Origin: Patescibacteria group bacterium
GTDB lineage: Bacteria; Patescibacteriota; Patescibacteriia; SG8-24; DYFX01
DNA length: 64,000 nucleotides
Direction of reading: 5' to 3'
Assembly (NCBI GenBank): GCA_030583805.1
Contig: CP129476.1
Span: 309,453 to 373,452 of the forward strand
Of the stretch, positions 10,279 to 33,018 are shown piece by piece (positions within the stretch are counted from its first letter, which is position 1; the number at the start of each line of letters is the position of its first letter). The notes under the pieces are model-generated. The model ran no database searches and was not told the origin of the DNA. It was given only the letters and a program-made list of their open reading frames with translations. The position numbers and the translations under genes were made by a program.

Positions 10279-10294
10279 GTTATACTGGGGATAT

Positions 10295-13418: not shown

Positions 13419-13489
13419 TCGGGGATCGTCTAATGGTAGGACAACAGACTCTGAATCTGTTTATCTTGGTTCGAATCCAGGTCCCCGAG
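13419..13489 (+). tRNA. tRNA-Gln (anticodon CTG)
   Basis: Hand-folded cloverleaf: acceptor tcgggga/tccccga, D-arm gtc-taatggtag-gac, anticodon stem acaga/tctgt with loop ctCTGaa, T-arm cttgg-ttcgaat-ccagg, discriminator G, encoded CCA at 13490-13492. Confidence 0.85.
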
Positions 13490-13664
13490 CCAAAGAAATT
13501 AAGTTCAGGTAGACCGGAACCTCCGCCCAAAACTGACGGGGTTCCAATAGACCGGAATGCCTGAAATCGAATGTGAAAGCACTGGAGAGATCCGGTGTTT
13601 TCGTTTTGACGAAGCCTTTCCTGAGGGGTACGGTGATGTCCGAATAATAACCCTAATAAAGTGA

Positions 13665-16600: not shown

Positions 16601-16700
16601 TTCTGCTTCGTACAAAGACGATCTGGCGGGCGTGTTTCAGGTGCTGGACAAGCTCATCGAAGAACCTGTAGTCGAGGCACCTGTCGCGCCTAGCGCTTAG
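13665..16700 (+). CDS. KAP family P-loop NTPase with four N-terminal transmembrane helices
   Basis: GTG start. Four hydrophobic helices in the first ~140 aa. FGIDAPWGIGKSSFVNF (KAP Walker A GxWGxGKS) and VIVIDDLDRL (Walker B). Confidence 0.8.
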   Translation: MVAKPIKRKIYAANLTTLMGFGLFGILSAEAYYVGSSTASKLVGDFHRGDYGYWLATICTGYLLYVVAYFILRGGPAAAAKLLKSRRADVVGVFVAGALMSISFGGFGSPLYQKLAYTLTVYQILTLALLPFALGLLILLRALQRGPDREGLPPFFISDVEQKNKTGDLLDLADEADRFAERVWNNGSIESMVFGIDAPWGIGKSSFVNFCRESWEGKHRGRVILYNFNPLRYEDRANLLEKFVDGLVRVVQKHAFVPEIRPLVSKYSRFIKSAKASFSFLGVDFELAPGTYTVDDAFADLESALTDIDRKIVIVIDDLDRLDFSAIKDVLSVIKKSFNLPNVSYVLCYDTENINVLERERPDVEKVTEFLEKFVNVKVGLYLDSETLAKYVSTNLARALVGNSQADPKLVSAAVGGLIDIYKSPEFHRYLPFIGDVRKIKRFINTLLLLEIEKADFKNSDFDKQDLVHLLLIYINYPSIFRKIYNAETNGRRGFFSVAMPLDDNYPKDPSAARSGLENTYKNSTDYEAYVKKLTDNQKFLLGKIFDVPLRLKDARIDGVPQEAKHVYACFNGGVFGGGQNLEAYLNLIVKLSKPQKSGQYKFYANLKDEIRDGKKSIDDVLSTSDFSYDCPESNREQLWKVIINSLSEFKSVVGSKLIVHLLGNMQNYSLFTNQVIGVGLRDDLDIFLTRLLDQVGWKDQKGEHTDNTPENISEIAEWVFGEGRHAGQSVLLTLAKEDRGTLGLYDLLCFRLFCSADRGGDIFNLSRALSKHGDPNAPTDGSIREIAIGEMREISQAVFGIFKSQYIDPGKNIFDLIDGLSLADFAGKYQAYIEGKVTSGEIENAETTVADLKSRMKSFITYQLTNTYISSGVGCGYYDPSGKEDAGGISHSVNDYLFGTCFNPSVAGKNYEHFLDYLLINFASTFESRGGREYTPHINEFTKILDKSKLAEYWREHATTIRGLNLTEKEKTVITSNYSASYKDDLAGVFQVLDKLIEEPVVEAPVAPSA

Positions 16701-17985: not shown

Positions 17986-18064
17986 AGCCCTTATTTGCCC
18001 TTACAGCCCCTTAATAGAAGGCATGTAGGACATCAATGCCGCACCCCGACCGTGAAGGCTAGGC

Positions 18065-18175
18065 TGGCCTTAAAAGCTCTTTAAAGCCATATGACACCGA
18101 CGAATCTCCGAACATCCCTGGCAATCCTGATGACAAGCATGGGGAAGGCATCCGCGAGATAGCTCGGCTATGCGA
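18065..18175 (-). pseudogene. Truncated 3' fragment of a second terminase large-subunit (terL) copy
   Basis: Reverse translation gives ...LADAFPMLVIRIARDVRRFVGVIWL*, matching the C-terminus of the intact TerL (...LADAFSMLVIRVAKDVRRFVGIIWL*). About 80% nt identity to 19360-19470. Confidence 0.7.
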
Positions 18176-18304
18176 ACCATCGAGACGAGGTCGGGATGAC
18201 ATTTTTGTCCCATAACGCACCATCATCGGATATTTGACGAGGATTAATCCACATGTTAGTCTTGCACCGGCTCACAACAACCACCCGAGCCATTGGAGGC
18301 AGAA

Positions 18305-18775
18305 ATGAAGCGCATCGTTCTTTTGACGGCGGTTCTCGCATACGGCGTGTTGACCTCGGGCTGTGTCGTGGATGACGACGGCGAGGACCTAGGGGTCACG
18401 GAGCAGGAGGTTACGGTCAACGACACACTGCCCACATCTGGGAGTAAGACGGTCAGCGTAGCCGTCTATCCTGGTGCACCCTCAGACATTATCATGAGTT
18501 CTCCGTCTTCCGGCAACTGGAAGTTCGAGACGTACGGCAGCCCAATCAGTCTGGGTGGTTGCTCGGCCGGCGACTTCATCGTCTACACCTACTGGCGAGA
18601 CACAAGCGTCAGCTCGACGTGGAACTACTGGCCAGGAGGCGGGCCGGTCTGTTACCCGACATCCGGGTGGTCGACGAACCTGTACAGCGGGAGCAGCACC
18701 ATTCAGTACAAGTTCGAGTACTACGCGTACGGCGGTTATGGCGAAACCGTTTACGCGAAGTTCACGAAGCAATAG
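18305..18775 (+). CDS. Hypothetical lipoprotein (Trp/Tyr/Ser-rich)
   Basis: GGAGG SD 5 nt upstream of the ATG. Signal peptide with lipobox LTSGC. Confidence 0.6.
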   Translation: MKRIVLLTAVLAYGVLTSGCVVDDDGEDLGVTEQEVTVNDTLPTSGSKTVSVAVYPGAPSDIIMSSPSSGNWKFETYGSPISLGGCSAGDFIVYTYWRDTSVSSTWNYWPGGGPVCYPTSGWSTNLYSGSSTIQYKFEYYAYGGYGETVYAKFTKQ

Positions 18776-18816
18776 TCGAGGGCTCGTACGTCGTGCTAGT
18801 ATGTGAATACAGCACG

Positions 18817-19287
18817 ATGTTTTTAAACCCAAACCATATGTCCATGCCCAAGCGTGTCCGGGAACTACTTTCCACAGCGTCCTTGTTGTTTTTTGTGTGG
18901 CTTTCCGCATTTAGTGGCGATTTCATTGCCGCGCGCACATTCCAAATGAATGATGCCTCCATCCGCAATCCTTGGTGGTCAGTAATCGTAATAGGGTTGC
19001 TCCAACTGATGTTCATGTACGTCGGAGCGCAAGCCATACTGCATATTCTTAAACCCGGCCGCGTCAATAAAAAGCTAGGATTACTTACAGCCCTAATCGC
19101 GTGGCTTTCACTAGAAAAAGTTCTCGCGTTTCCTCGATTGCTTGCGACTCTGCTTCCCAACGGGATTATCGGTACAAACACCGCTCTTTCTACGGTTATC
19201 GTAATTGCAGCACAACTTTCGGTGACGTATCTGCTGGTGTTGATTATCTCGCGCTTGTTGCTTACGGGAGAGGGTGATAGCAAGTGA
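18817..19287 (+). CDS. Hypothetical integral membrane protein (~4 TM)
   Basis: MFLNPNHMSMPKRV... start inside the longer track ORF. Multiple hydrophobic helices. Confidence 0.5.
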   Translation: MFLNPNHMSMPKRVRELLSTASLLFFVWLSAFSGDFIAARTFQMNDASIRNPWWSVIVIGLLQLMFMYVGAQAILHILKPGRVNKKLGLLTALIAWLSLEKVLAFPRLLATLLPNGIIGTNTALSTVIVIAAQLSVTYLLVLIISRLLLTGEGDSK

Positions 19288-19369
19288 CGATTGGGAGCAT
19301 ATAGTTACCGGGAGTAGCTAATGCCTTTCTGCTTGTGACTGTCTGGCTTGTGCCGCCCTTAAAAACCCC

Positions 19370-20860
19370 TTAAAGCCAGATGATACCGACGAATCGCCGA
19401 ACGTCCTTGGCAACCCTGATGACGAGCATCGAAAAGGCGTCCGCAAGATCGTCGTGTCGCTCCGCGCCGAAGCCGACGAGCTGGCGGATCAGGTCATCGC
19501 ATCCGGTCTTCGGAAAGTAGATGTTGCCGAGTTCCATCTCTCGCGCCGCCAGCGTTAGTCGCGCCCGCTTGTCCATGCCCTCTGGACTCACGCCGTAGGT
19601 CGTGAGGTTCGCGTGCTTCATAGTCTCGATCGCCGCGCGTTGAAAGGCGACGTCCTCGACGTAGAAGCGGTGGTACTTCCGATCCGTCATCGTCTTGGTG
19701 AGCTTGGCGGCCTGGATGATCCCTTCGAACGTGAGGTGCTTGTTCGTTACGAACGGCAGGATGTAAACGCGATAGTCCTCACAGAAACCCTGTCGGTCGG
19801 ATTTCTTGTACACGGCAGCGGTGACCATCGCGGTGTAGTCAGCCGACTCGCGCTGTGAAATCGCGAGATCTATACCAGTCGCCACAAACTCGAAGTGCCA
19901 CCCCGGTTCAAGAATGTTCGGCGGCTCGTCCGGAAGGCCCGCGTATCGCTTAATCCATTCCGGCTGCACGACCTGATCTCGGTCGGGCACGATCTCCTGC
20001 ATATACTCCCTGCGAAAGGCCCACTGGTCACCGATCTTTCGCTTGAGATCCTCGATGTGCTCCATCGTCGGGAACTTGGCCGGCCACGCGGGACACCCGT
20101 CTATGACGATCGGGTACTGGCGATAAATGCCGGTCAGTTCCTTTTTCTCAATCTCGTCCTTGAGACGGGCGACAAGCGATTCCTCGTGGAGGAGGTTGCC
20201 GACGATGAAGATGTTGCAGGAGTCGCCGCCCGCCGGGATGACTTCCGATTTCAGCCATCGATATCGCTTCTCACGGATCTCGCTCGAACGAACTGAATCG
20301 AGGTCCTCGACGTCGTCGATAATGATCAGGTCGGGGCGGTTGGAGTGGTTCTTGAGTCCTCGGAGTGAGCTGTCCGCCGAAAGCGCGACAATCCTCGCCT
20401 TGTATCGCGGTAGGACAAGCGAGTTCTCGTTCCAAATATCACCCACGTTGAACGGGCCGTAGTCATTGATGAGGCGGGCGTTCGTTTCCAGCTCAGACTT
20501 TATGTTGTAGAGGATCTGTTTGGCCTGCGGCTCGGTCTTGCTGATGATCAGGATGAACTTCTTGCGTCCCGTCACCGCCGCCCAGATGGGATACGAAAGC
20601 GAGGCGATCGTGGACTTGCCCGAGTTCCTGAAGGCGACCACGACACGGAGCGGGTCTGCACATGACTCCGTCAGCCGGAAGATCTCTTTATGAAAGAGGG
20701 CGAACGGCACCGTCATGTGCTCGCCGAGATACGTCATGAAGAACCACAGATGACTTTCCGTGGTGAGACCGATCCGAAAGGCGCGCTCCTTCTCGATACG
20801 CGAGAAGGTTTCCTCAAGAGATCCGTTTTGAGGTTGAATTCTTTCCTGCATCGCCGTCAT
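19370..20860 (-). CDS. terL: Phage terminase large subunit (TerL; ATPase + RNaseH-like nuclease)
   Basis: AFRNSGKST (Walker A), LIIIDDVED (Walker B), ATGIDLAISQRESADYTAMV in the nuclease domain. Start taken at MTAMQERIQ, overlapping the terS 3' end. Confidence 0.85.
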   Translation of the reverse strand: MTAMQERIQPQNGSLEETFSRIEKERAFRIGLTTESHLWFFMTYLGEHMTVPFALFHKEIFRLTESCADPLRVVVAFRNSGKSTIASLSYPIWAAVTGRKKFILIISKTEPQAKQILYNIKSELETNARLINDYGPFNVGDIWNENSLVLPRYKARIVALSADSSLRGLKNHSNRPDLIIIDDVEDLDSVRSSEIREKRYRWLKSEVIPAGGDSCNIFIVGNLLHEESLVARLKDEIEKKELTGIYRQYPIVIDGCPAWPAKFPTMEHIEDLKRKIGDQWAFRREYMQEIVPDRDQVVQPEWIKRYAGLPDEPPNILEPGWHFEFVATGIDLAISQRESADYTAMVTAAVYKKSDRQGFCEDYRVYILPFVTNKHLTFEGIIQAAKLTKTMTDRKYHRFYVEDVAFQRAAIETMKHANLTTYGVSPEGMDKRARLTLAAREMELGNIYFPKTGCDDLIRQLVGFGAERHDDLADAFSMLVIRVAKDVRRFVGIIWL

Positions 20861-21317
20861 TTTTCGGTTTCGAGTTGGCCTCTGTCTCTGCCAGCCCAGT
20901 TTCGCCGCCGGCCGCCTCCGCGAGAAGCGCAACGGATTGTCGGATGATCTCTTTCTGTGTATCCGAGATCTCGACGGGCTCCTGCTGTTGCGGCGCGAGG
21001 AGTTCGACTTTTGTCGCGTATGCGCGGTGGTGGTGCTTGAGCCAGAAGATCACGGCCGTGAGGTTTCCTTCCCTAATGGCAGTCATGAGCTGTGACTCAG
21101 CCATGTCGTTCACAAGACCCGCGCCGGTCTCAACGGCCTCGTCGACGGCGGCGGCGAACGCCGCGTCATCCTTCCGCCAGCGGTAAAATGTTGCGCGGCC
21201 GATCCCGACCTTTTGGCAGGCTCCTTGAACGATCGGCCGCTTGCGTAGCTCTTCGACCAGAACCTCTTTCTGCTTTTCCTGCCGTATGGTGACGGCGTCC
21301 TTCTTCTCAGTCCCCAT
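20814..21317 (-). CDS. terS: Phage terminase small subunit (TerS, HTH + FWLK motif)
   Basis: HTH CQKVGIGRATFYRWRK and NLTAVIFWLKHHHRAY, resembling Terminase_2-family small subunits. Sits immediately upstream of terL. Confidence 0.65.
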   Translation of the reverse strand: MGTEKKDAVTIRQEKQKEVLVEELRKRPIVQGACQKVGIGRATFYRWRKDDAAFAAAVDEAVETGAGLVNDMAESQLMTAIREGNLTAVIFWLKHHHRAYATKVELLAPQQQEPVEISDTQKEIIRQSVALLAEAAGGETGLAETEANSKPKNDGDAGKNSTSKRIS

Positions 21318-22638
21318 ATGAGATGCGTGTGGCCTTGAGGCCTGTCAGGTTCTCCCAGCGCTTCCGGATGACCTCGGCGTACACGGGGCTTTTCTCCATC
21401 AGGAAACATCGGCGCTTGAGCTTCGTCGAAGCGATCAGCGTGCTGCCACTCCCGCCAAACGGCTCGATGACGAGGTCGCCGCGCTTCGTGAGCATCTTGA
21501 TGTATGGAATCAGGATTTCGGTCGGCTTCGTGCCGAAGATGACGCCCTGACCCGAGTGCTTTTCGTCGGACGAGCGGAACTCGATGAAGTCCGTGGGGCA
21601 GTTCTTTTTGCCCTTCTCGTAGGACTCCCATTGCGGCTTGCCGCTGATGGCGTAGAGGGCGGTCTCGTACTCCTCTTGGAGCGGGGCGTCTTCCGGCTCA
21701 TTGTTGTATGGGACGTCGCCTGACGCGCCGACCATGGCGATGTCATGCTTATTGAAGAACCGGTATTTCGACGAGAAGCCCTGATGCCGGTTTTCGAGAT
21801 GCCACACGATCATGTTCTTCACCTTCCAACGCTTCTCCATCTCGTCCCAGATCGTCCGGATGTTCTTCCAGTTTTCAAACACGATGATGGCGAAGTTTGG
21901 CTTGGCCGACGCCGCCACGCTGTTCATCCATAGCTCGGTGAAGTTGTCTGGCAGGGACTCGGTCTCGAGGTAGCGTCGGTCCCGCTTATAGCCGAAGCCG
22001 GTCACCGGATCGCCGTGCTTCTTCTTGCCCTTCAGGTAATCGAGAATGTAAGGTGGGTCCGTCATGCACATGTCGGCCTTCTCGCTGCCCATGAGCTTCT
22101 GGAATTCCGCTTCGACGGTCGAGTCCCCACACATGAGGCGACTGTCGCCGAGCGCCCAGACATCGCCCTTCTTGATCTCGATCTCGTTGATGTCCAATTT
22201 TTCGAGCTCCTTCTGTAGGTCGAACGTCTCTGGCGTATCCTCGACGTCGAAGATGCGGTCGAGTTCTTGACTCGAGAACCCGACGTCGGACAGGAATGAC
22301 TCGTCAAACTTGGCCAGCATTTCCCAATCGAACTCTCCGGTCGTGAGGTTGCTTCGGACGTTATACTCCTCGAACTCTTCCATTGTGAGCTTCCGATTCG
22401 GGACGCGCACGTCGATTTCTTCCTCCCCGCGCCCAAGCGCCAGCAGAATCTTGATCCTCTGATGCCCGGCGATGAGACGATTATCCGTATCGATCGCGGG
22501 GATCTCTACGAGATTGAATCTTTCAAGCGACCGCTTGAGCTGTTCCACTTGCTCGTCGGAAATCTTGCGAGGATTTCCCTCCCACGGCAGGATCTCCGCG
22601 ACCTTTCTTTTCTCCGTAAGCCAGTGAAGGCTGTCCAT
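21307..22638 (-). CDS. ParB-like nuclease N-terminal domain fused to N6-adenine/N4-cytosine DNA methyltransferase
   Basis: LIAGHQRIKILLALG (ParB/Srx fold), MTDPPY (motif IV DPPY) and EPFGGSGST (motif I). 11-nt overlap with the terS start. Confidence 0.85.
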   Translation of the reverse strand: MDSLHWLTEKRKVAEILPWEGNPRKISDEQVEQLKRSLERFNLVEIPAIDTDNRLIAGHQRIKILLALGRGEEEIDVRVPNRKLTMEEFEEYNVRSNLTTGEFDWEMLAKFDESFLSDVGFSSQELDRIFDVEDTPETFDLQKELEKLDINEIEIKKGDVWALGDSRLMCGDSTVEAEFQKLMGSEKADMCMTDPPYILDYLKGKKKHGDPVTGFGYKRDRRYLETESLPDNFTELWMNSVAASAKPNFAIIVFENWKNIRTIWDEMEKRWKVKNMIVWHLENRHQGFSSKYRFFNKHDIAMVGASGDVPYNNEPEDAPLQEEYETALYAISGKPQWESYEKGKKNCPTDFIEFRSSDEKHSGQGVIFGTKPTEILIPYIKMLTKRGDLVIEPFGGSGSTLIASTKLKRRCFLMEKSPVYAEVIRKRWENLTGLKATRISYGD

Positions 22639-22710
22639 AAAAAATGGTCATGATGAGTTATCACCATGACCATATCAATCGACAGGTTCGGGTCGTGGGA
22701 AGTCTGACCC

Positions 22711-23520
22711 CTATGATTTCCCACGCTTCCGGAATCGTTTTTTCCTTGTTTTCTCAAGATCCTTCACGATGTAGCGAACCGCATCAGATTTCTTGTCGGT
22801 GCCCAAAAGTTCCGATGCAATTTCGGCCGTCGTGGTCTTGTAGGGCTTCTGTTCGACCGGATCAAACTGTTCCCCCCGTCGGTACCACTCTTCGATGCTG
22901 AGATCGCGGTCGATGTGCTTCATCGGCTTGTAACGCGGCATACCCCTATGCTTTGCGAACCATTCGACCTGCTGCATCGCGAGGCGGATATCTTCTTGGG
23001 TCGGTATCGTATAGAACGTGACTGGGATGTGTCGCACCGTGCTGAGCCTTTCGTTTGATCTCAGCTCTGTCCAAGGTCCGATGACAAAATTATGATACGG
23101 GGCAGTTATCCTGCCTTGGACGATGTACGTGTCAACGTGGTTCTGATAGTTCTCCGGGAGGTTAAACTTTTCGACAATGAAACGCGCCCTGCCCGATCGG
23201 TAGTTGATGGGCACCTCCTCGCGGTAAAGGTTGATCCGCCTGTAGTACTCGTCTGAATTTATTTTCTTGGCCTTCCATTCATCGGTGATAGCTCGACCGC
23301 GGGCATAATAATCAGGCTTTCCAAGAACTGCGTCGCTGGCGGCAATCCACGAATCCGACCAGCGCTTCATGTCATCGTCAGTCTTTAACCCGCCGCCCGC
23401 GATTCCAAGCGTCTGTCGCACCTCCGCGACGATATTCTGAAACTCCTTGTCAGAAACAAGGAGTTTCATATTCGCCAAATTGGCTTCGTAGCATTTCGGG
23501 TGCTTGTGCGGCTTCGCCAT
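22711..23520 (-). CDS. Hypothetical protein (269 aa, basic C-terminus)
   Basis: Clean ORF in the low-GC island, divergent from the Type III mod gene. No motif I recognise. Confidence 0.5.
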   Translation of the reverse strand: MAKPHKHPKCYEANLANMKLLVSDKEFQNIVAEVRQTLGIAGGGLKTDDDMKRWSDSWIAASDAVLGKPDYYARGRAITDEWKAKKINSDEYYRRINLYREEVPINYRSGRARFIVEKFNLPENYQNHVDTYIVQGRITAPYHNFVIGPWTELRSNERLSTVRHIPVTFYTIPTQEDIRLAMQQVEWFAKHRGMPRYKPMKHIDRDLSIEEWYRRGEQFDPVEQKPYKTTTAEIASELLGTDKKSDAVRYIVKDLEKTRKKRFRKRGKS

Positions 23521-23765
23521 ATAAAAATACTGAGATAGTCAGCGTCTGAGAGACTTATTCAATCAGACGGATCAGTTTGGGTGTCGCTATGAACTTATTG
23601 AAGTGCTGGGTCTCCATAAGGCTATTATATGCCGCAGAAAACCTGATCCGCCAGTTTTGGAAGACCTAAATAACCTTAACGAGACAGGCGGAATGCCTAA
23701 AATCCCCTTAAAAAGCAAGTCCTCTAAAGAACTTCACTTTTTCCAGTTTCTAAGCTACTCTTTGT

Positions 23766-23881
23766 CTGTCTAGACCCAACCCGAACAGGGCAAGTTTTGC
23801 CTATTTCCGGATCGCGCGCATAGAGCGGCATCCGGATAAAACAATCCTCGCACGATCCGTGCTTGGGTTGGGTCTAGACAC
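23766..23881. promoter_or_regulatory. Inverted-repeat-rich control region between divergent genes
   Basis: gtctagacccaacccgaaca (23766-23786) and its complement cttgggttgggtctagac (23860-23879), about 75 bp apart. Internal palindromic tccgga sites. GGGTGTCGCT direct repeat at 23578 and 23886. Confidence 0.5.
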
Positions 23882-23940
23882 CTCCGGGTGTCGCTTTGTT
23901 TTTATAGGCATCCGGCGGGCTTACACGTCATCTGTAGCCC

Positions 23941-25662
23941 ATGCCTCAAAATCCTGCCCAACTAAAAGAAGGAGAGCTGCTGCTTCGTGTTGCGGAGCTT
24001 GAATCCGAGATAAAAAAGTTAAAGGAGAGAAAAAAGTACGGTCTCGTCTGGGAGGATCGGTCGGAAGACGTGGTTTTGCAATGCCGCGAAAATGTTCCGA
24101 TTCTTCAAGAATACAAGGCGCAAAAAATCGTCACTGATGAAGCAACGTCCGCAAACATCCTAATCGAGGGCGATAACTATCACGCCCTCTCCGTGTTGAA
24201 CTATACCCATCGAGAGGCTTTCGACGTAATCTATGCCGACCCACCTTATAACACTGGCAATAAAAGCTGGCGGTATAACAACGACTACGTTGAGAAGGAC
24301 GACGATTTCAAGCACAGCAAGTGGCTATCCTATATTCACAAGCGCCTCCTTTTGGCGAAAAACCTACTGACGGATTCGGGCATCCTGATATTTGCTATTG
24401 ACGATTATGAAGCCCACACCCTGCGTCTGCTCCTTGATGAGGTCATGGGTGAGGATAATCGCCTCGGCACGATAGCTGTAGTACACAATCCTCGCGGAAG
24501 AAACGACGATCAATTTTTTGCGACCCAGCACGAATACATGCTCGTTTACGCAAAAGATCATAGCAGGGCTGAAATAGGAAACTTCGAACTCACGGAAGAA
24601 GACCGCAACCAATATAAAAAACATGATGAGATTTCTCCGTACGCAGAAACGTCGTTTATGCGCACTGGAAACAACTCAAACCATCACGAAAGACCCAAAC
24701 TTTTTTACCCCATATTTTTTAATCCGAGAACCCGGAAGCTCTCTCTAAAATTAGAGAAAGGGGGCATCGAAATACTGCCAATCAACGAAGCGGGTGAAGA
24801 GAAAACGTGGCGCTGGGGTAAAGAGACTTTTGAAAGGCTGTGCGACACCGATCTTTTTGTAAAGACTGTTAAGGGCAGGGATCGGATTTTTAAGAAAAGA
24901 AGACTAACGGTCGATACGGGAAAGAAACCAAAGAGCGTCTGGTATAACTCCAGGTATGATGCCTCGACACAAGGCATCATGGTTTTGCAGGACATTTTTG
25001 GCCGCGGCAATCATTTCAATTACCCAAAATCATTGCTCTTGATGGAGGATATTTTGGAGATCACTTCAAAGCCAGACTCGCTAGTCCTCGATTTTTTTGC
25101 TGGAAGTGGCACCACTGGTCACGCCGTTCTCAAGCTCAATAAGAAAGATGGCGGCAACCGTCGCTTCGTACTGTCTACGAACAATGAAAATAAGATTTGC
25201 GAGGAGGTAACCTATGAACGCCTGAAACGCGTTATAAAGGGTTATACGAATAGCAAAGACAAAAATACTGTGGGCCTCGGCGGAAATCTGACTTACTACA
25301 AAACCGCCCTCGTGAGCATCGACCAGCTTCAGAAGGTATCTGACGAAGCAAAAATCAAGATTGCATATCAGGCAGGCGAGATGATTGCCGTCCGGGAGAG
25401 CACGCCGGATGAGTTAGAAAAAAATGACTGGTGGCAGCTGTTCGGGGGAAGCGGAAAAATCATGGCCGTCTACTTCAAGGAGGACAAGGCCAGGCTATCC
25501 GACCTCGTAAAGAAACTCGAAAAAACAGGCCGCCCGGTCGTGCTGTATGTCTTCGGTTGGGGCAAGAACGAATACAAGAACGAGTACGGGTCGGGAAAGA
25601 TCCGCGTCGAGGACATCCCCGAACCTATCCTTGAGGTCTACAAGGAACTGAACCGTCTCTAG
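23941..25662 (+). CDS. mod: Type III restriction-modification system methyltransferase (Mod)
   Basis: DVIYADPPYNTG (motif IV) and DFFAGSGTTGHA (motif I). N6-adenine MTase beta-class layout, followed by res. Confidence 0.9.
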   Translation: MPQNPAQLKEGELLLRVAELESEIKKLKERKKYGLVWEDRSEDVVLQCRENVPILQEYKAQKIVTDEATSANILIEGDNYHALSVLNYTHREAFDVIYADPPYNTGNKSWRYNNDYVEKDDDFKHSKWLSYIHKRLLLAKNLLTDSGILIFAIDDYEAHTLRLLLDEVMGEDNRLGTIAVVHNPRGRNDDQFFATQHEYMLVYAKDHSRAEIGNFELTEEDRNQYKKHDEISPYAETSFMRTGNNSNHHERPKLFYPIFFNPRTRKLSLKLEKGGIEILPINEAGEEKTWRWGKETFERLCDTDLFVKTVKGRDRIFKKRRLTVDTGKKPKSVWYNSRYDASTQGIMVLQDIFGRGNHFNYPKSLLLMEDILEITSKPDSLVLDFFAGSGTTGHAVLKLNKKDGGNRRFVLSTNNENKICEEVTYERLKRVIKGYTNSKDKNTVGLGGNLTYYKTALVSIDQLQKVSDEAKIKIAYQAGEMIAVRESTPDELEKNDWWQLFGGSGKIMAVYFKEDKARLSDLVKKLEKTGRPVVLYVFGWGKNEYKNEYGSGKIRVEDIPEPILEVYKELNRL

Positions 25663-25666
25663 TGAT

Positions 25667-27994
25667 ATGTTTCCACTCAAGCCATTCCAAGAGCAGGCGG
25701 TCGCAAAGCTGAAGAACGAGTTTCTTTCTCTTTGGAAGTCGCCTCACCATAATGTACCGCTCGTCTTCAAGTCGCCAACGGGTTCCGGCAAGACGATCAT
25801 GCTCGCGCAGTTCCTGCGCGACATCGTGAGCGATCCGCGCTTTCAAGGCAACGATGTGGCGTTTCTGTGGTTCTCGTTCAGCGAGGACTCCTACGTCCAA
25901 AGCAAGGAGAAGCTGTTCGCGTACTACGGCGGCGCTTCAGAGCTGGACCTGCTCGATCTGAACGACCTCACCCGAGGCAGGCTTCAGAAAAATAACGTCT
26001 TCTTCATCAACTGGCAGAAGATCAAGGGTAAGTCGAAGGACAGCCGAAAACTACGGCGCGAGAACGAATGGGGCCTGACATTTGATAACGTCATCAATAA
26101 GACCCACGAGGACGGACGCAAGCTCGTGGTCATTATCGACGAGGAACACGTCGGGGCGGATACGGACCTTGCGCTTGAGGTCATCGACGGCCTCATCCGT
26201 CCGAAGGTCACCATACGTGTCTCGGCGACGCCCAAGTACATTCCAAATGCGGAAGAGATCGCCGATGGGAAGGGCGGCTTCGTCAACGTAAAACGGGACG
26301 AGGTGGTTCTGGCCGGACTCATCAAGGAAAAAATTATCTTCCAGACGGAAGAAGACCTCAACAAGAAGGAGTTCAAGAGCGCCGACCAGGACGAGATTCT
26401 TCTTGAGCTTGCTTATCGCAAGCGACTCGATCTGATCCGCTGGTACAAGGAGATTGGCATCGATATCAACCCACTCGTCCTCGTCCAGCTCCCGAACGAT
26501 GATCAAGAATCGAAGACGAATGTCGCAACGAAACGCGGCATCGTTTCCGACTACCTCAAGCGGAAAGGTGTTTCGGAAAGCGAGATAGGCGTTTGGCTTT
26601 CGAATGAAAAGGTGAACCTTGAGAACATCGAGGCGAACGAGTCGCCTGTCTCTTTCCTTTTATTCAAGCAGGCGGCCGCGACCGGCTGGGACTGCCCGAG
26701 AGCGGGAGTGCTCGTCATGTTCCGCGAGATCAAGAACCCGACGTTCGCCATCCAAACGGTCGGCCGCATTTTGCGCATGCCGTTGGGTTCCCATTTTCCG
26801 CGTCCCGAACTCAACGTCGGCTATCTGTACACCAACTATAAAAGGAACGAGGTACTGGCCGAATATGCGAAATCGAAGTCCGACAACCGGCCGGCGATCA
26901 ACGGGAGCTATCGTAAAGCAGACGTGAAGTCGATCACGCTCGATTCGGTCTTCATGAGCCGTACGGACTACAACGACCTAGGCGACACCTTCCAGGCGAT
27001 ATTTGGGACGGCAGCCGATGGTCATTTCGGTATCAGCGACAAAGACGGCAAGCAGACTGCTCTCGATAAGCTCGCCAAGAAAGGCTTCGATACGTCGCCG
27101 AAGGTCACGAACGGCCTCATCGTCGGCGTCGAGATCGACGACTATGACAACTTCATCCAGGAGCTTGTCGCCGAGGGTGCGAGCCACGATCAGGAGATGT
27201 CGGAATACGACCTTGAACGCCTCTACAACCTCCTCTGCTTCAAGCTGATCGCCAAACAGACCGATGAACAAAAGAAGTTCGCGCCCGAGCGCTCTTGGGG
27301 AAAGCTCAAGACGGCGCTCAACGTCTGGATGATCGGACGTACGAGGGAATTCCGCCGGGCTGCCTACAGAATGATCGTCAATGACCTCCTGAACCCCGCA
27401 AGCGTCCTCGCACCGCTCATCGGCTCCTCGTTGGCGCTATATCGCCCTCTTCGAGAGCAAGAAGTGAACAGGCGTTCCGAGCGGTCGAAACGCACAGAGA
27501 CGATTGATCTCCCCCGCGAGGCACTGTTCTTCACTGATCAGTACACGGAGATGAAGGTGAAGAAATGCGCGATGTCGCCCTTCTACATCGAGAAGGACTA
27601 TCAAGGGGAGGATAATGAAAAGGGGTTCATTGCCTTCCTTGAGAGCCATAAGAATGTCCTCTGGTGGCACAAGAACGGTGATATCGGGAGCGAGCATTTT
27701 TCGATCTCGTACTACAACCCGGACGAAAACAAGGAGAGGCTCTTTTATCCCGACTGGATCGTGAAGACGCCTGCCGCCGTCTGGATCATTGACACCAAGC
27801 AGGGAGCGACGGCCGAGCTCGCCGACACCAAGCATAAGGCAGAGGCGCTACAGGCCTGGTTAAAGAGCAGGAAAGGCTTTGCTGGAGGCATAGCCGTTCA
27901 AGACGGCCCGAACGGGTGGAAACTGAACAGGAACTCTAAATACTCCTATGCGCCCTCGTTCACAGGATGGGAAGCCTTTAATGATTTGCTGTGA
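25667..27994 (+). CDS. res: Type III restriction enzyme Res subunit (SF2 helicase + endonuclease)
   Basis: FKSPTGSGKT (Walker A) and VVIIDEEHV (DEEH box). Immediately downstream of mod. Confidence 0.9.
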   Translation: MFPLKPFQEQAVAKLKNEFLSLWKSPHHNVPLVFKSPTGSGKTIMLAQFLRDIVSDPRFQGNDVAFLWFSFSEDSYVQSKEKLFAYYGGASELDLLDLNDLTRGRLQKNNVFFINWQKIKGKSKDSRKLRRENEWGLTFDNVINKTHEDGRKLVVIIDEEHVGADTDLALEVIDGLIRPKVTIRVSATPKYIPNAEEIADGKGGFVNVKRDEVVLAGLIKEKIIFQTEEDLNKKEFKSADQDEILLELAYRKRLDLIRWYKEIGIDINPLVLVQLPNDDQESKTNVATKRGIVSDYLKRKGVSESEIGVWLSNEKVNLENIEANESPVSFLLFKQAAATGWDCPRAGVLVMFREIKNPTFAIQTVGRILRMPLGSHFPRPELNVGYLYTNYKRNEVLAEYAKSKSDNRPAINGSYRKADVKSITLDSVFMSRTDYNDLGDTFQAIFGTAADGHFGISDKDGKQTALDKLAKKGFDTSPKVTNGLIVGVEIDDYDNFIQELVAEGASHDQEMSEYDLERLYNLLCFKLIAKQTDEQKKFAPERSWGKLKTALNVWMIGRTREFRRAAYRMIVNDLLNPASVLAPLIGSSLALYRPLREQEVNRRSERSKRTETIDLPREALFFTDQYTEMKVKKCAMSPFYIEKDYQGEDNEKGFIAFLESHKNVLWWHKNGDIGSEHFSISYYNPDENKERLFYPDWIVKTPAAVWIIDTKQGATAELADTKHKAEALQAWLKSRKGFAGGIAVQDGPNGWKLNRNSKYSYAPSFTGWEAFNDLL

Positions 27995-28461
27995 ACAAGA
28001 GTCGTCACCTTGAGGTACTAATAGAATCCGTGAGAGATAAGTGTGACTTCCTAGCTGAGGCGAACAACACGTTAGATGGGAAAGCTGCGACATTAATGGG
28101 CTTTGAGATCACCCTCGGCATAGGCTACGCGTCATTGGTACTTGGAAATGTGGGTGGTACTAATCATGACGAGGGTGTCGCTGGGTTATTCATGTTGGGC
28201 ATGTCTGTAGCTTCTCTGCTGTACGTGAACTGGCCCCGAGATTACACGACGACCTGCGTCGATCTTTTCGAACACACAGAATACCTGGAGAAGGGGACGG
28301 GAGATTTGTTGCTCCAATTAACGAGTGATGCACAGAACGCCTTCTCTCAAAACAACCAAAAATTGAAAACCAAGGCCAGGTTCTATAAAGCTGCGATCGT
28401 CCTGCTTCTCGTCGCTACATTCTTGTTCCTGATGTCAAAATCACCAAACTTCTATGTCTGA
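27991..28461 (+). CDS. Hypothetical small membrane protein (3 TM), translationally coupled to res
   Basis: ATGA-type overlap with the res stop. Hydrophobic segments ITLGIGYASLVLGNVGG, VAGLFMLGMSVASLLYV and AAIVLLLVATFLFLM. Confidence 0.55.
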   Translation: MNKSRHLEVLIESVRDKCDFLAEANNTLDGKAATLMGFEITLGIGYASLVLGNVGGTNHDEGVAGLFMLGMSVASLLYVNWPRDYTTTCVDLFEHTEYLEKGTGDLLLQLTSDAQNAFSQNNQKLKTKARFYKAAIVLLLVATFLFLMSKSPNFYV

Positions 28462-28644
28462 TACTCGACAACCCCAACCTCAACCCAAGCCGATCGAGCT
28501 TCCGAAACCGAATCAGGGAGAGACTGTGACAAAGGGTGGCTAGAGCCCACAACACGAATCTCAACCCCATTTCCAGACCATGTGTAAATATGCGTGAGTT
28601 TCTGGTGTGGTCGAACCAGCGAAGAATTATAGCATCGGCCGTCC

Positions 28645-30009
28645 TCATACGTGTGCACATTGTAGTACCGCCACAAACAGACTCTCTACCTCATTCTCGA
28701 TTTCATTAGGCCCAACTCTATAAGACGACGATAAGGGATCCGAAATCACAATATAACCCGTCGGGGCGAAGGCACTAGTTGGCAACATAAAAAACTTCTC
28801 GACCTGCTCAGCGCCGGTGGTATCCACCGCCACTGCCAGTACTCTGTCGAACCAGCGCTGATGCTCCTTGATCAAAAAACACCATCGCCCGATATTGTCT
28901 GGCCCTACGGTACGAGCGGCATAAAGTACGGGAATCATCCGGGCAAAACGGATTGCCTCGGCGGAATCCAAGCCCTTCCGCACTAAGTATGAACGCAGTT
29001 CCTTGAGAACAGATTTGCGCGCCTTCCGAATAGCTCTCTCGCCAGCTTTGCATCTGGATGGGAGAATCCAATAAAGCCTTTCTTGGGCGAGCTCGAAGGT
29101 CTGCTTGTCGATAATTGCTGGAATGGCGTTTTCTGTTTTGATCCATTCGCTACGCGGATTCTTCCGATGTCCCTTCTTCAGCTTATTCCAAGTTTTGTTA
29201 TATACGAGTGTGCCGGTATAGACCTCGTTCATCAGTATTCGAATGATCTTAGTTTTGTTCCATGTCCCGCCATTGGGCGAACGGACTTCCGATGCATTGA
29301 GCATCCCAACGATGCGATCCAAGCCCAGCCGTCTCGTCACGAAATACTGAAAAATATCCTGTACGGTCTGGGTTGTTCCATCATCAGCAGGAACGAATAC
29401 GACACGTTCATTCGCTATGCACTTGTGCTCGCCTTTTCTCAAAACCCGCACCGGCTTCTTATCGATGTCTAGAAGAAATCTGGCCAATCCGAAGCAGGCA
29501 ATGCCACCGTTTGAATAACCCTGCTGTGATGTTCTTATACATCCCTTGGAGACCTTGTCACTAAGCTCGGCGCTGTACTGGCCCGCCATGATTCGATGGA
29601 AAGGATTTTCCATCTGCGCCATCGGTGACTCGTCCGGCTTCGGAAGACCACGAGAGAGGTAGACGACAGGCCTCCCGTGTTTTTTGCAGAGAAACTGATA
29701 ATGAGCTGACTCATCCTGATCTTGAAAGCGCCCCCACCGGGACACGTCGAGGACCAATACAAAGTCGAAGACGGGTGCCTCTGGATTCAAAACCCACTCG
29801 TCAAACAACCTTTGGAATCCAGGTCGCCCGGCTGTGAGGCCACTTTTACCCTCATCGACTTCCTCATGAATGATGTCGATGCTGTGCCGATCGGCGAATC
29901 GCTGTACCTGTTCTCGTTGAATTGGGACCGAATTCTCCTGTTTATCCTCCGCTGAATGACGATAATACGCAACGGCCTTTTTCCTAGTGACGCCTCCAAA
30001 CAAGCTCAT
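28645..30009 (-). CDS. Large serine recombinase (second copy, distinct sequence)
   Basis: AVAYYRHSAEDKQENSVPIQ is the catalytic Ser region. Recombinase domain with a Cys-containing C-terminus. 454 aa. Confidence 0.85.
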   Translation of the reverse strand: MSLFGGVTRKKAVAYYRHSAEDKQENSVPIQREQVQRFADRHSIDIIHEEVDEGKSGLTAGRPGFQRLFDEWVLNPEAPVFDFVLVLDVSRWGRFQDQDESAHYQFLCKKHGRPVVYLSRGLPKPDESPMAQMENPFHRIMAGQYSAELSDKVSKGCIRTSQQGYSNGGIACFGLARFLLDIDKKPVRVLRKGEHKCIANERVVFVPADDGTTQTVQDIFQYFVTRRLGLDRIVGMLNASEVRSPNGGTWNKTKIIRILMNEVYTGTLVYNKTWNKLKKGHRKNPRSEWIKTENAIPAIIDKQTFELAQERLYWILPSRCKAGERAIRKARKSVLKELRSYLVRKGLDSAEAIRFARMIPVLYAARTVGPDNIGRWCFLIKEHQRWFDRVLAVAVDTTGAEQVEKFFMLPTSAFAPTGYIVISDPLSSSYRVGPNEIENEVESLFVAVLQCAHV

Positions 30010-30022
30010 AAGACCGCCTCGC

Positions 30023-30889
30023 TTAAATCAACTCGATCAGTAACTTTTTCAGCTGTTGAAGCATCGGCTTCTCGTCAGTCGAGAACTCAACTGCATTTTT
30101 CTTTTTACCCGCAATTGCTTGGATCAATTCATCGATCAAGAGTGAAAAACCTGATTGCTGAGATCGTTCTTCTAGTTCCTGAATGGTCATGTCCGGGTCG
30201 GTTAGGAACGCGTAGAGTGCGTCTTCGTTCACGGCCGCACGGATGAAGATGCGTTTTAGTGTTCTGATGTCTTGGGCATTGGTAATCACGTCGTAACTGA
30301 TTTTCTCGAAAATGGTGCGGATAATGGCATCGACTTCCAGGTTTTTAATCTTCCGAATCTTGGGTTTCATTTTCAAGAATTCCACCCGATAACTTTCTTT
30401 CAGCTGATAGCGTTCCATCATGGCGATGTGCTCGACATTTTGATCCCGCATTTTTAGAACATAGGTTACTGTGGAGTGTGACAGGTGCAGTGCATCAGCC
30501 AGTTCGACCGTCGATTTATAGCCCATCGCTGATTTGATTTTAACGAAGGCGTTGGAGCGTTCGGCAGGCGTCCACTGGCGCTTGTTGTTTTGAATCTCAA
30601 ATCGTCTCAGCTCGAACTCCCCCGGATCCATTTTCGGATATACTCGGCAAGGAACGGCCGTGAGGCCGATTTCCTTGGCACACTCAAAACGACGGTGGCC
30701 GTCGAGAATCAGGTAACGGTCCTTGTCGATCTCGCTCACGGCCAGGGGCATCTCAATACCCATATCCTTAATTGAGACGAGTAGGCGGTTGTGTTCGCCC
30801 TTTACTCCGAATTCTTTACGAGGTTGGTCGGGATCCATCGCTATCTGGGCAACAGCTATCTCACGAAACACGGGTTTGTATTTTTCCAT
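30023..30889 (-). CDS. ParB-like protein (ParB N-terminal nuclease-like domain + HTH)
   Basis: LILDGHRRFECAKEIG is the ParB box. HTH LADALHLSHSTVTYVL. ATG at 30887-30889; the track ORF begins at an upstream TTG. Confidence 0.75.
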   Translation of the reverse strand: MEKYKPVFREIAVAQIAMDPDQPRKEFGVKGEHNRLLVSIKDMGIEMPLAVSEIDKDRYLILDGHRRFECAKEIGLTAVPCRVYPKMDPGEFELRRFEIQNNKRQWTPAERSNAFVKIKSAMGYKSTVELADALHLSHSTVTYVLKMRDQNVEHIAMMERYQLKESYRVEFLKMKPKIRKIKNLEVDAIIRTIFEKISYDVITNAQDIRTLKRIFIRAAVNEDALYAFLTDPDMTIQELEERSQQSGFSLLIDELIQAIAGKKKNAVEFSTDEKPMLQQLKKLLIELI

Positions 30890-31099
30890 ACAGGACAAAG
30901 AGCAAACGAGTTGTACCCGTTTTTACCCTTTTTTATGTTTTACGCTCGGAGTGATTATTTTCACTCCCGAATGGGAGGAAGTTAACGAAGTGGGTGTTTT
31001 TTGTCAAGAAAATATAGGAGTGTTCGTGACATTGACGCATGGGGCCTGTCAGCGTACAGTTGAGTTATATTTGTACGCATTATAAGCTTACGTAAGACT

Positions 31100-31450
31100 A
31101 TGAGTAATAATCAGACCCTTGGGCAGCGCATCAGGGAGCTGAGAGACGAGAAAGACCTCTCCCTAAGAGACTTTGCGGTGAAGCTCAAGCTTTCTCCCGC
31201 CTTCGTCTCTGACGTAGAATTAGGTAGGCGCTACCCCAGCGAGGACGTCATTGCAAAGATGGCATCGGTGCTGGGTGTAAAATTGAAAGACCTCGAGGCA
31301 TACGACCCCAAGCCAGTCGTTGAAGAAATAAAAAGACGCACCCTTCAGATTGATCCTGAGCTCGGTATTTTAATGCGCGGCAATCTAAAGAGCGATGCGG
31401 ATTACGAGGAGTTGAAGAAATTTTTGAGAACGAAAGACAGCAAGAAGTAA
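31100..31450 (+). CDS. XRE-family HTH transcriptional regulator
   Basis: LGQRIRELRDEKDLSLRDFAVKLKLSPAFVSDVELGRR is an HTH_3 motif. Confidence 0.85.
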   Translation: MSNNQTLGQRIRELRDEKDLSLRDFAVKLKLSPAFVSDVELGRRYPSEDVIAKMASVLGVKLKDLEAYDPKPVVEEIKRRTLQIDPELGILMRGNLKSDADYEELKKFLRTKDSKK

Positions 31451-31454
31451 CACG

Positions 31455-32177
31455 ATGCTGCTATTCCCCACCGAAAGCTCGCCGTTCACGGAACGGACCG
31501 TCTATAAGCCGGCCGAGTTGGAATTGATGGCCATGGATGAGCTTCGGAAAGCTGGACTGCTCCCGCGCACCCCTGAACCGATCCGCATCGAGGCCTACGT
31601 TACCAAGAGGTATAATCTGACACCGGACTACAGCGCACCCCTACCCGATGGGGTTCTTGGCCTTACACGCTTTGGTGCCAAAGGACCGACTGACATTCTC
31701 GTCTCGAAAACACTGGGAGACGATCTCTCGGACGTTGGAAGGCGGAGAACCAATGCGACACTGGCTCACGAAGCTGGTCACTGCCTCCTTCACGGTCCTC
31801 TTTTCGCAGTGAGCGGTCGGGTCGGTGGTGGGATCTTGGAAAGAGGCGGTGACAGTCACGGAGCCGATGCAGGTATTGATACTTCTGATCCCAGCATCCT
31901 TTGTCGTGAGATCGGCACTGACGTGCCCACCTACAACTGGGTGGAGTCGCAGGCCAATGCCATGATCGGTCCACTCCTGATGCCGCAACCTCTCGTCGCG
32001 TCGTTGCTCAAAATCGAGTTCGGCATGAGCTTGCCTACCCCGAAGACCGGCGTCATCTCCCTAAGCAAGGACGATGCGGCCACCATCGTCAGGAAGCTGT
32101 CGGAAATTTTCGATGTGAATCCGGCCGTGGCGCGCCTTCGCATCGAAAAGATGGGGTTCAACATCCCCCGGACTTGA
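31455..32177 (+). CDS. ImmA/IrrE family metallo-endopeptidase
   Basis: HEAGHCLLH (HEXXH). Directly downstream of the XRE regulator, in the ImmR/ImmA arrangement. Confidence 0.8.
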   Translation: MLLFPTESSPFTERTVYKPAELELMAMDELRKAGLLPRTPEPIRIEAYVTKRYNLTPDYSAPLPDGVLGLTRFGAKGPTDILVSKTLGDDLSDVGRRRTNATLAHEAGHCLLHGPLFAVSGRVGGGILERGGDSHGADAGIDTSDPSILCREIGTDVPTYNWVESQANAMIGPLLMPQPLVASLLKIEFGMSLPTPKTGVISLSKDDAATIVRKLSEIFDVNPAVARLRIEKMGFNIPRT

Positions 32178-32592
32178 CACGGATATTTTTTTACTTGCGC
32201 TGTCTTCAAAATAAGCGTACATTGTACGAGATGGTTCCCGTCGGAAACGGAAACGACGGCCTTGAAGGGCCGCCGTTCCCGGCGCCGATGCGGGGTCGGT
32301 ACAGGGCATCTCGGGAGAGAAGCTGGTCGAACTGTACCACGGAAGCGGCCGCCGCCTCCACCCCGCCAAGCCCGGGATCTATTCACCGAAGACTGCGTAT
32401 GGCCCAAAAACCTGCGTCCAAGACGGTGCATCGGAGCTCGGAGTCTGGAAAGTTCGTGACGGAACGGTACGCCGACCGCCACCCCCGGACCACTGAGACC
32501 GAGCGCATCAAGAGGACGGGTCGCAAGTGACCGAACCTGCGCGGGACGGCCGGTGTAAGGGCCGCCGTCCCGCCAAGGTGCGGCACGCGAAA

Positions 32593-32901
32593 ATGGGCCA
32601 CAGCAGGACTCAAAATATGGATCTACTCGGCTATACATTCCAAGGTCCGTACTCCATCGACGGCAAGTTCAATGACGTCCCCGGGATCTACCTCATCCTC
32701 ACGACGGCGCGGAATAAGGTCGTGGACGTCGGACAGACCGACAAGCTCGGTCAGCGCATTCCGAACCACGACCGTAAGCCAGACTGGCGTCAGTGCGGCA
32801 GCTGCGAGTTGTGGTTCCATCATGAAGCCAACGAACAGACTCGGCTGACGAAGGAATCCCGGCTCCGCGCGACCTACGATCCGCTTTGCGGAGAAAGGTA
32901 G
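32593..32901 (+). CDS. GIY-YIG nuclease domain protein (small)
   Basis: PGIYLILTTARNKVVDVGQTDKLGQRIPNH matches the GIY-(~10)-YVGQT-L-R-H pattern. Start ambiguous between MGHS at 32593 and MDLL at 32617. Confidence 0.55.
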   Translation: MGHSRTQNMDLLGYTFQGPYSIDGKFNDVPGIYLILTTARNKVVDVGQTDKLGQRIPNHDRKPDWRQCGSCELWFHHEANEQTRLTKESRLRATYDPLCGER

Positions 32902-33018
32902 ATCGACGCGGTTCGGCGACTAGGAAATACCGGGAGGGCGCATTCGGGCGCCCTCCCGGTCAAGTCCGACTCGCCGTATTTCATCCGTCTTTAAGAAAAT
33001 CTTCTATGTAATAATCCT

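Follow-up and report, generated by a model that had tools for sequence, protein, structure and literature searches.

We analyzed a 64,000-nt window of a 1.17-Mb Patescibacteria (candidate phyla radiation, CPR) contig (CP129476.1, positions 309,453 to 373,452 of the forward strand), in which a Type III restriction-modification (R-M) operon ends with two small, overlapping genes. Arranged head to tail on the + strand, where the original prediction had placed them, are mod (23941-25662), encoding a Type III DNA methyltransferase, res (25667-27994), encoding a divergent Type III restriction subunit, and the open reading frame (ORF) of a 156-aa membrane protein with three helices (27991-28461), hereafter the transmembrane (TM) gene. 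Its product is predicted to belong to the superfamily that holds the PycTM effectors of Pycsar (an antiphage system built on a pyrimidine cyclase) and the 2TM effectors of CBASS (cyclic-oligonucleotide-based antiphage signaling system). An unannotated micro-ORF (28454-28543, + strand), encoding the 29-aa peptide MSDTRQPQPQPKPIELPKPNQGETVTKGG, overlaps the end of the TM gene, and the four genes together occupy 4.6 kb. The TM gene and the micropeptide gene form a conserved two-gene cassette, and the linkage of this cassette to R-M genes is non-random.

Mod (573 aa) is clearly a Type III enzyme. It matches Pfam N6_N4_Mtase (5e-34), PADLOC MTase_III (9e-89) and Type III Mod chains in the PDB (7dsu, 6k0w and 4zcf), and it displays DPPY (motif IV, residue 100) ahead of FAGSG (motif I, residue 386), the motif order of a beta-class N6-adenine methyltransferase. 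Res (775 aa) begins 4 nt after mod and combines the motifs of a superfamily 2 (SF2) helicase (GSGKT39, DEEH158, SAT186 and QTVGR363) with a C-terminal PD-(D/E)xK nuclease motif (PDW..IIDTK, residues 695-711). Its similarity to known Res proteins is weak (Pfam ResIII, 2.5e-13; PADLOC REase_III, 6e-15), and a search against PDB sequences returned no match. The description of both genes as canonical thus holds for mod and is too generous for res. Compared with R-M systems of the EcoP15I type, the locus shares the mod-res order, a beta-class Mod matching the EcoP15I Mod structure, and the helicase and nuclease motifs of Res. In contrast to those systems, its Res is short and too divergent to match solved Res proteins by sequence, and two additional overlapping genes follow res. 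Base composition at third codon positions (GC3) is mosaic across the operon (0.56 in mod, 0.73 in res and 0.57 in the TM gene, with host genes at 0.72-0.86), which suggests that res and its neighbors have different histories.

The TM gene starts with a GTG at position 27991, within ctGTGAac, and overlaps by 4 nt with res, whose TGA occupies 27992-27994; the GTGA junction thereby confirms the overlap that had been proposed. The corresponding NCBI product (WKZ29442.1, hypothetical protein, 156 aa) has the identical start. About 85 representative clusters match the TM protein in a library of 1.8 billion proteins, nearly all of them 145-170 aa long. In the closer relatives (~55% identity, mostly from CPR bacteria), the alignment begins at residue 1 and conservation includes the N-terminal 35 residues, which shows the GTG start to be correct. 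A start at Met36, chosen by the Logan gene caller in one assembly and giving a 121-aa protein, was rejected as a truncation, since it would remove those conserved 35 residues. The possibility that the small ORF lacked conservation, on which the original prediction would have foundered, is answered by a pairwise ratio of non-synonymous to synonymous substitution (dN/dS) of ~0.09 and by full-length homologues: the TM ORF is a real gene. A hydropathy plot places hydrophobic segments at residues 33-53, 62-80 and 131-149, and an AlphaFold2 model (49 homologues; predicted local distance difference test score, pLDDT, 82.9) shows long helices spanning residues 3-52, 59-80 and 103-149, in agreement with the three hydrophobic helices first noted. 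The N-terminal segment and residues 81-130 of the model lie outside the predicted membrane spans. Comparison of the model with solved structures and with viral predicted structures yielded nothing similar, and a single-sequence search of genome contigs with the window's TM protein likewise returned nothing. IMG/VR and PLSDB contained no relatives, and INPHARED gave one non-significant match (E=0.8).

The absence of a recognizable motif, as initially reported, stands for the window's protein taken alone, for which Pfam, NCBIfam and PHROGs gave nothing useful, but not for the family as a whole, which is recognizable as PycTM/2TM. Models of PycTM in PADLOC are matched by 44/49 family members and the "2TM Effector" models of CBASS by 22/49 (best 1.4e-5), while precomputed matches to PF18967 (PF18967.6) exist for most homologues and the Pfam SLATT model is matched weakly by one family member only. 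The alignments span nearly whole proteins. In P0011, which is 54% identical to the window's TM protein, residues 3-153 align with positions 2-153 of the 160-position PycTM model (6e-9), and residues 15-148 with positions 26-164 of the 174-position 2TM model (2e-5). Judged from these profile alignments, the TM family is a distant, end-to-end relative of PycTM and of the CBASS 2TM effectors. PycTM is the membrane effector of Pycsar (PMC11224242). The cassette protein resembles it in superfamily, in size (the PADLOC PycTM profiles have 154-165 positions) and in the end-to-end alignment of its close homologues, and as a small helical membrane protein it would likewise be expected to compromise the membrane and to cause abortive infection. 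It differs from PycTM in that the cassette loci have no adjacent PycC cyclase, the partners being R-M operons or a KAP NTPase, in the conserved overlapping micropeptide gene, and in that the window's own protein falls below the Pfam threshold. With the SLATT-like 2TM effectors of CBASS it shares the concept of a small membrane effector, but the similarity is weaker than to PycTM and no CD-NTase accompanies the cassette. Conserved polar residues are Y85, Y98, N121 and K128 in a diverse set of homologues, and Q109, D113, Q115 and N116 in a closer set.

The second gene of the cassette was discovered when DNA 3' of the TM gene was aligned across 13 loci. It begins with an ATG placed 5 nt ahead of the TGA of the TM gene (ATGTCTGA), so that the two genes overlap by 8 nt. 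A corresponding micro-ORF follows the TM gene in 30/37 loci examined, and it is kept even where the TM protein is only 26-39% identical to that of the window. In most of the 7 loci that have no full micro-ORF, the contig ends too soon after the TM gene; the micro-ORF of locus L034 has the same start and has lost the C-terminal motif. This motif, [LW]PxPNxGE-x-[VIF]-[TS]-K-G-G, follows a middle part rich in P and Q and of variable length. Insertions and deletions in the micro-ORF are multiples of three, third-codon positions are the most variable, and dN/dS is 0.10 in frame vs 1.2 and 1.9 in the other two frames, which together show that the micro-ORF is coding. A profile of the peptide matches ~46 protein clusters at E<=1e-3 (best 1e-12), nearly all of 34-58 aa, none of which carries a Pfam domain or an informative name. 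The micropeptide is thus a conserved gene family, unnamed and with no assigned domain in any source. It was missed by the NCBI annotation pipeline PGAP, the accession numbers being consecutive from the TM protein to the serine recombinase downstream, and also by the original prediction, as was the KAP NTPase described below.

We collected ~60 loci and annotated their upstream genes with Pfam and PADLOC, which gave 24 distinct contexts with at least one readable upstream gene. In 13 of these 24, the TM-peptide pair is the last, co-directional pair of an R-M operon, and the 13 systems are all distinct. Two are of Type III (mod and res, in the window and in locus L059), three are Eco57I/MmeI-like enzymes of Type IIG (942 aa, 854 aa and 740+ aa), and eight are of Type II: EcoRV with a D12 methylase (in two lineages), NgoPII with a C5 methylase, a C5 methylase with HinP1I, Tsp45I with an N6/N4 methylase, a RadC-C5 methylase with HpaII, DpnII with two methylases, and an EcoRI-type methylase with a GmrSD/HNH nuclease. 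The gap between the cassette and the preceding gene is -14 to +5 nt in 9 of the 13. Even assuming that 5% of random genes have an R-M neighbor, the probability of finding at least 13 such contexts among 24 is 2e-11, and the check that had been proposed, namely whether homologues occur beside res or other R-M genes elsewhere, is therefore positive. No cyclase, CD-NTase or SMODS family was listed in ~25 distinct loci (flanks up to +-10 kb), nor was a cyclase found among the genes within +-10 kb of the window's cassette or in the listed matches of the window's ORFs. Neither the adjacent PycC class III cyclase of a Pycsar operon nor the adjacent CD-NTase of a CBASS operon thus accompanies the cassette.

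Several neighborhoods contain further notable genes. Unannotated proteins lie directly 5' of the cassette in L025 (294-1025), L029 (50-658) and L038 (883-1923). They share an N-terminal domain of ~85 aa (47-61% identity), their C-terminal parts differ, and they may represent another recurrent partner family. The NgoPII loci (L018, 6551-6979; also L017, L022 and L041) encode a conserved 142-aa protein between the C5 methylase and the cassette, with no Pfam match and a weak PADLOC match to tm_HEPN (E=0.0026). In L001, the Type IIG gene and cassette are followed downstream (8582-10798) by genes for a 246-aa unknown protein, for a RelA/SpoT-like small synthetase of 260 aa and for another protein of 242 aa, which may form a neighboring toxin or defense module.

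The cassette is constant and the R-M genes in front of it are exchangeable. Different R-M systems (NgoPII, IIG, Tsp45I, EcoRV and HpaII) precede TM proteins of 94-99% identity, and in most comparisons DNA homology between loci starts no more than 3 nt 5' of the TM start codon. It extends across the micro-ORF and ends ~160-340 nt after the TM stop codon. This arrangement would fit selection for co-expression and the mechanics of cargo swapping alike. The non-coding tail 3' of the cassette, which has GC-rich hairpins and a conserved 43-nt terminal segment, is repeated in inverted orientation beyond the R-M genes in L024, where both arms are internal (193 nt, 99.5%), and in L036 (49 nt, 96%), and similar inverted repeats, with one arm cut by the contig end, are present in L016, L028 and L041. 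As the tail recurs inverted across the R-M genes, the repeats enclose these genes together with the cassette as a single unit. Mobile R-M units with long repeats on either side were reportedly described by Furuta, Abe and Kobayashi in 2010. The sister loci resemble such units in holding R-M genes plus cassette between inverted repeats of 49-193 nt, and differ from them in that a conserved non-R-M cassette constitutes the constant right-hand part; the window also differs in having no such repeats, no long unit-flanking inverted repeat being seen there. Direct repeats resembling att sites were likewise absent from the window, and L008 had only short terminator-like or ribosome-binding-site-like repeats, which were not convincing. 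Serine recombinases flank the cassette in L005, L024, L032 and L059, and tRNA genes lie 5' of the R-M-plus-cassette unit in L001, L008, L018, L033, L038 and L059.

Individual loci show further features. Fragments of Type IIG 3' ends (69-142 nt) remain 5' of the cassette in L031, L033 and L039, where other R-M systems now stand, the one in L033 being duplicated (5474-5543 and 6109-6176), and these fragments look like scars of cargo replacement. L024 contains two adjoining pairs of near-perfect inverted repeats (1829-1962/3485-3618 and 3615-3807/7623-7815), one bracketing a serine recombinase beside tRNA-Trp and the other bracketing DUF5655, EcoRV, methylase, TM and peptide genes, a segment that could be an invertible or mobile unit. 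In L027 (6898-7001), the cassette begins 27 nt after tRNA-Pro with no R-M gene between, and in L001 the same tRNA-Pro(ggg) is followed by a Type IIG gene and then by the cassette; L027 may represent a slot left empty or a form that stands alone. About 200 nt of conserved non-coding sequence lie 3' of the micro-ORF (L018, 7600-7810; also L024, L026 and L028). This block contains a hairpin directly after the stop codon, in which pairing, judged by eye from an alignment, seems to be kept despite substitutions in both arms (CCAGTT/AACTGG, CCAAC/GTTGG and CCACGC/GCGTGG), as well as two GC stems of 10 bp each and, at its end, a conserved segment of 43 nt. A search of Rfam with the region 3' of the cassette (window, L018, L026 and L028) gave no match, and the 3' region of the window folded no better than shuffled sequence.

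In three relatives (L059, L060 and L012/L014), a KAP NTPase of ~1,000 aa is encoded between the R-M genes and the cassette, its gene overlapping the cassette or lying 4-5 nt away, and the KAP proteins of L059, L060 and L012 match the PADLOC model of PifA at 5e-29. The gene order in L059, which carries a sister of the element in the window, is serine recombinase, mod (570 aa), res (779 aa), KAP, TM, a 34-aa peptide and a PDDEXK gene, and the same locus carries a ParB-methyltransferase and a large terminase that is 40% identical to the one in the window. Window Mod and Res are respectively 38% identical and 31% identical (over ~760 aa) to their L059 counterparts. Among the remaining ORFs of the window, a scan with Pfam identified one KAP NTPase (13665-16700, + strand; KAP_NTPase, 9e-41), a PifA-like P-loop protein of 1011 aa with N-terminal hydrophobic helices. 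Its gene comes directly after a tRNA-Gln gene, in the same low-GC island as the cassette and 11 kb away from it, rather than directly beside the effector gene as in L059, L060 and L012. The protein aligns with the L059 KAP over its full length at 53.5% identity, vs 47-48% with those of L012 and L060. As the two are orthologous, each of the five components of the L059 operon is present in the window, where the KAP gene is set 11 kb apart. The window's KAP NTPase is probably a trans-acting partner of the cassette, to judge from this orthology.

Based on these observations, we consider that the cassette most probably represents a toxin or abortive-infection module that is expressed together with the restriction genes, as its sequence relationships suggest. 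In the model that we propose, the TM protein would be the effector half and the 29-aa micropeptide the other half of a portable two-gene cassette, which Patescibacteria would attach by its start codon behind R-M operons, at their 3' end, whatever the type. The cassette would be co-transcribed with mod and res, and termination-reinitiation at the GTGA and ATGTCTGA overlaps would ensure translation at a low level. The TM protein would remain latent in the inner membrane. Upon an infection that gets past restriction, it would oligomerize and depolarize the membrane, resulting in abortive infection as a second line of defense, with the micropeptide, plus the KAP NTPase where present, acting as regulator or sensor. 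PycTM and CBASS 2TM effectors kill or arrest the cell by membrane disruption, and this homology and, independently, the recurrent pairing with PifA-like NTPases lead us to favor an Abi-like (abortive infection) accessory. Of the accessory roles suggested originally, the Abi-like effector thus fits, while a membrane tether is unlikely given how varied the partners are. We hold to a latent membrane-disrupting effector that provides second-line defense tentatively, judging it a little less than evenly probable. The structural claims (real genes, family, cassette and R-M linkage) are much firmer than this functional model, in which membrane toxicity, latency, the trigger, the roles of the peptide and of KAP, and translational coupling are what we infer from homology and gene order.

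A more specific version of this model, possible but doubtful in our estimation, is a cyclase-independent kill-switch, in which the micropeptide, sometimes together with a PifA-like NTPase, would replace the cyclase, so that restriction would be followed by abortive infection. The known relatives of the TM protein in the PycTM/2TM group are switched on by cyclic nucleotides, and such effectors are thought to need a nucleotide-signal synthase. Pycsar with its membrane effector PycTM was reportedly described by Tal et al. in 2021. The papers on PycTM found in a literature search concern only cyclase-linked Pycsar; the search yielded no description of a cyclase-less PycTM-like effector attached to R-M operons, nor of the micropeptide family or of an architecture of R-M, KAP, TM and peptide genes. 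What is already known is the effector family itself, and abortive-infection effectors within R-M loci are not without precedent. In the EcoprrI locus (Type Ic) of E. coli, the anticodon nuclease PrrC is encoded between the hsd genes and is physically masked by one specific enzyme; as an Abi effector wired into an R-M operon as a second line, it provides the closest conceptual precedent for the proposed role of the cassette. The cassette effector differs from PrrC in being a membrane protein that is always encoded at the 3' end and is promiscuous across R-M types. PifA of the F plasmid, a KAP-type NTPase that excludes T7, offers a second parallel: the KAP proteins of L059, L060 and L012 resemble it at the score given above, and both are membrane-associated NTPases linked to abortive infection. 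The window departs from this parallel in the 11-kb distance between KAP and cassette, and to our knowledge PifA does not work with a PycTM-like partner or a micropeptide.

Several observations weigh against this interpretation. No cyclase stands beside the cassette, although the known relatives of the TM protein need cyclic nucleotides. Taken alone, the window's TM protein matches PADLOC PycTM weakly and partially (E=0.006, residues 26-81), and the local PF18967.5 model is matched by 13/49 family members, none better than E=0.011. The window's KAP gene lies 11 kb off, a distance at which its involvement is a guess. The cassette is also found without R-M genes, which are therefore not required: directly after tRNA-Pro (L027), after an XRE helix-turn-helix (HTH) gene that neighbors a serine recombinase gene (L005), behind a tyrosine integrase (L053), within a phage-like element that shares the ParB-methyltransferase of the window (L055), among metabolic genes (L058), and on several short contigs whose upstream proteins could not be annotated. 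Finally, the sharp start of homology and the near-identical TM proteins behind different R-M genes could perhaps reflect the mechanics of cargo swapping rather than a functional tie.

This last point is central to one alternative, in which the TM-peptide pair and the repeats would be the vehicle, i.e., the backbone of a small mobile or invertible element, with R-M genes as interchangeable cargo dropped in just upstream, and the TM protein would have a job of its own unrelated to restriction, such as exclusion, transport or maintenance of the element. Such a backbone would account for homology between loci with different R-M systems that begins within 3 nt of the TM start, for TM proteins of 94-99% identity behind different enzymes, for the empty-looking site in L027, for the Type IIG remnants in L031, L033 and L039, and for the mosaic GC3 of the window (res, 0.73 vs TM, 0.57). 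However, the cargo is overwhelmingly R-M or PifA-like defense genes rather than a random assortment, the constant orientation and minimal spacing would be needless for passive cargo, and the TM family is a defense-effector family. We thus consider the vehicle unlikely.

Equally unlikely, in our judgment, is an addiction module of the toxin-antitoxin (TA) type, in which a TM toxin and a labile micropeptide antidote would stabilize the mobile R-M unit by killing the cells that lose it. The adjacency of the two genes, their 8-nt overlap and the peptide ORF in 30/37 loci make them, from sequence, a putative pair, and a conserved toxin-like TM gene overlapping a peptide gene does resemble a TA layout. 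The units appear mobile, given their inverted repeats, serine recombinases, tRNA genes and a GC content below that of the host, and the gene ahead of the cassette in L005 is of the XRE-HTH kind, which is common among TA regulators. However, a downstream peptide coupled by reinitiation would be expected in an amount no greater than that of the toxin, which would be atypical of antitoxins; R-M systems of Type II already stabilize themselves; and homology to signal-activated Abi effectors, as well as the PifA-like NTPases, points to the sensing of infection. The roles in addiction and in phage abortion are not mutually exclusive.

That the TM protein is an orphan receptor of the PycTM/2TM kind, responding to a cyclic (oligo)nucleotide whose cyclase would be encoded either by the phage or at another place in the genome, is quite improbable. 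The end-to-end alignment with both effector models would favor such a receptor, as would the clustering of conserved polar residues in the predicted non-membrane helices, which would suit a ligand site. Yet neither the ~25 distinct loci nor the matches of the window's ORFs list a cyclase or CD-NTase, CPR genomes are of ~1 Mb (the source contig has 1,167,441 bp), and what constantly accompanies the TM gene is a peptide rather than a cyclase.

A holin-like lysis protein or a superinfection-exclusion protein of the phage-like island is more improbable still. The small multi-helix membrane protein and its location in an island with a large terminase, a ParB-methyltransferase and an XRE/ImmA-like pair recall such proteins, but no endolysin-family match is listed for the neighboring genes, most homologues are in small chromosomal R-M units without phage genes, and IMG/VR, INPHARED and PLSDB hold no significant relatives; we thus rejected the holin, which would be expected beside an endolysin and in phage genomes. 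Least credible of all is the original suggestion of a third component of the Type III system, i.e., a dedicated subunit acting as membrane tether or regulator in contact with Mod or Res: for all the 4-nt overlap with res and the second Type III operon (L059) with a cassette further downstream, this was rejected on account of the variety of the partners, as the cassette follows unrelated Type II and Type IIG enzymes and also stands alone, a KAP gene separates res from the TM gene in L059, and specific contact with so many unrelated partners is implausible.

If the latent-effector model holds, its implications go beyond this locus. R-M systems are treated as self-contained units of two or three genes, and few defense systems have been annotated in Patescibacteria, which are very small and uncultured. 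What stands at these loci is an effector clade that has no cyclase, whether it lost one or never had it, that has gained a micropeptide partner, and that is repeatedly joined at its start codon to R-M systems, 13 in number and unrelated to one another. If functional, the cassette would hard-wire restriction as a first line and abortive infection as a second, would represent a new regulatory principle for a widespread effector family, and would give Patescibacteria an additional layer of defense. Were the cyclase-independent version true, it would amount to a new control of a PycTM-type effector and to a general wiring of R-M with abortive infection.

Upstream of mod, in the divergent intergenic region that separates it from the ORF of a 269-aa protein, lies an inverted repeat of 24 nt (23767-23880; 88% complementary, 66-nt spacer), which is possibly a regulatory site, i.e., a putative operator or terminator. 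A terminator-like stem (23877-23892) and a promoter-like site (23676-23703) are located in the same area, the counts of such sites being not above the shuffled expectation. A promoter and terminator scan between mod and the cassette revealed no convincing internal site, again with counts at the shuffled expectation.

The operon is embedded in a composite low-GC island (13419-33000) beside tRNA-Gln (13419-13492, + strand; ARAGORN), which is probably its left boundary or integration site. The GC content, otherwise about 0.6, drops to 0.46-0.55 at 14-17 kb and again at 23-31 kb. Next to the KAP gene is a gene for a large serine recombinase (16690-17985, - strand), 55% identical to the recombinase beside L059 mod, Resolvase and Recombinase being among the matches of the window's ORFs. 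It is followed by a large-terminase gene (19370-20932), a gene for a 167-aa HTH protein, a gene for a fusion of ParB with an N6/N4 methyltransferase (21307-22638) and, before mod, the gene for the 269-aa unknown protein. Beyond the cassette, a second large serine recombinase gene (28645-30009, - strand; Pfam Resolvase and Recombinase) runs convergently to the operon and serves as a marker of the mobile element around it; it is followed by a ParB-like gene (30023-30898) and an XRE and ImmA-like pair (31100-32177). Despite the terminase, no capsid or tail matches are listed for the island, which may be a satellite or a remnant. Related copies of the island are found in L055 and L059.

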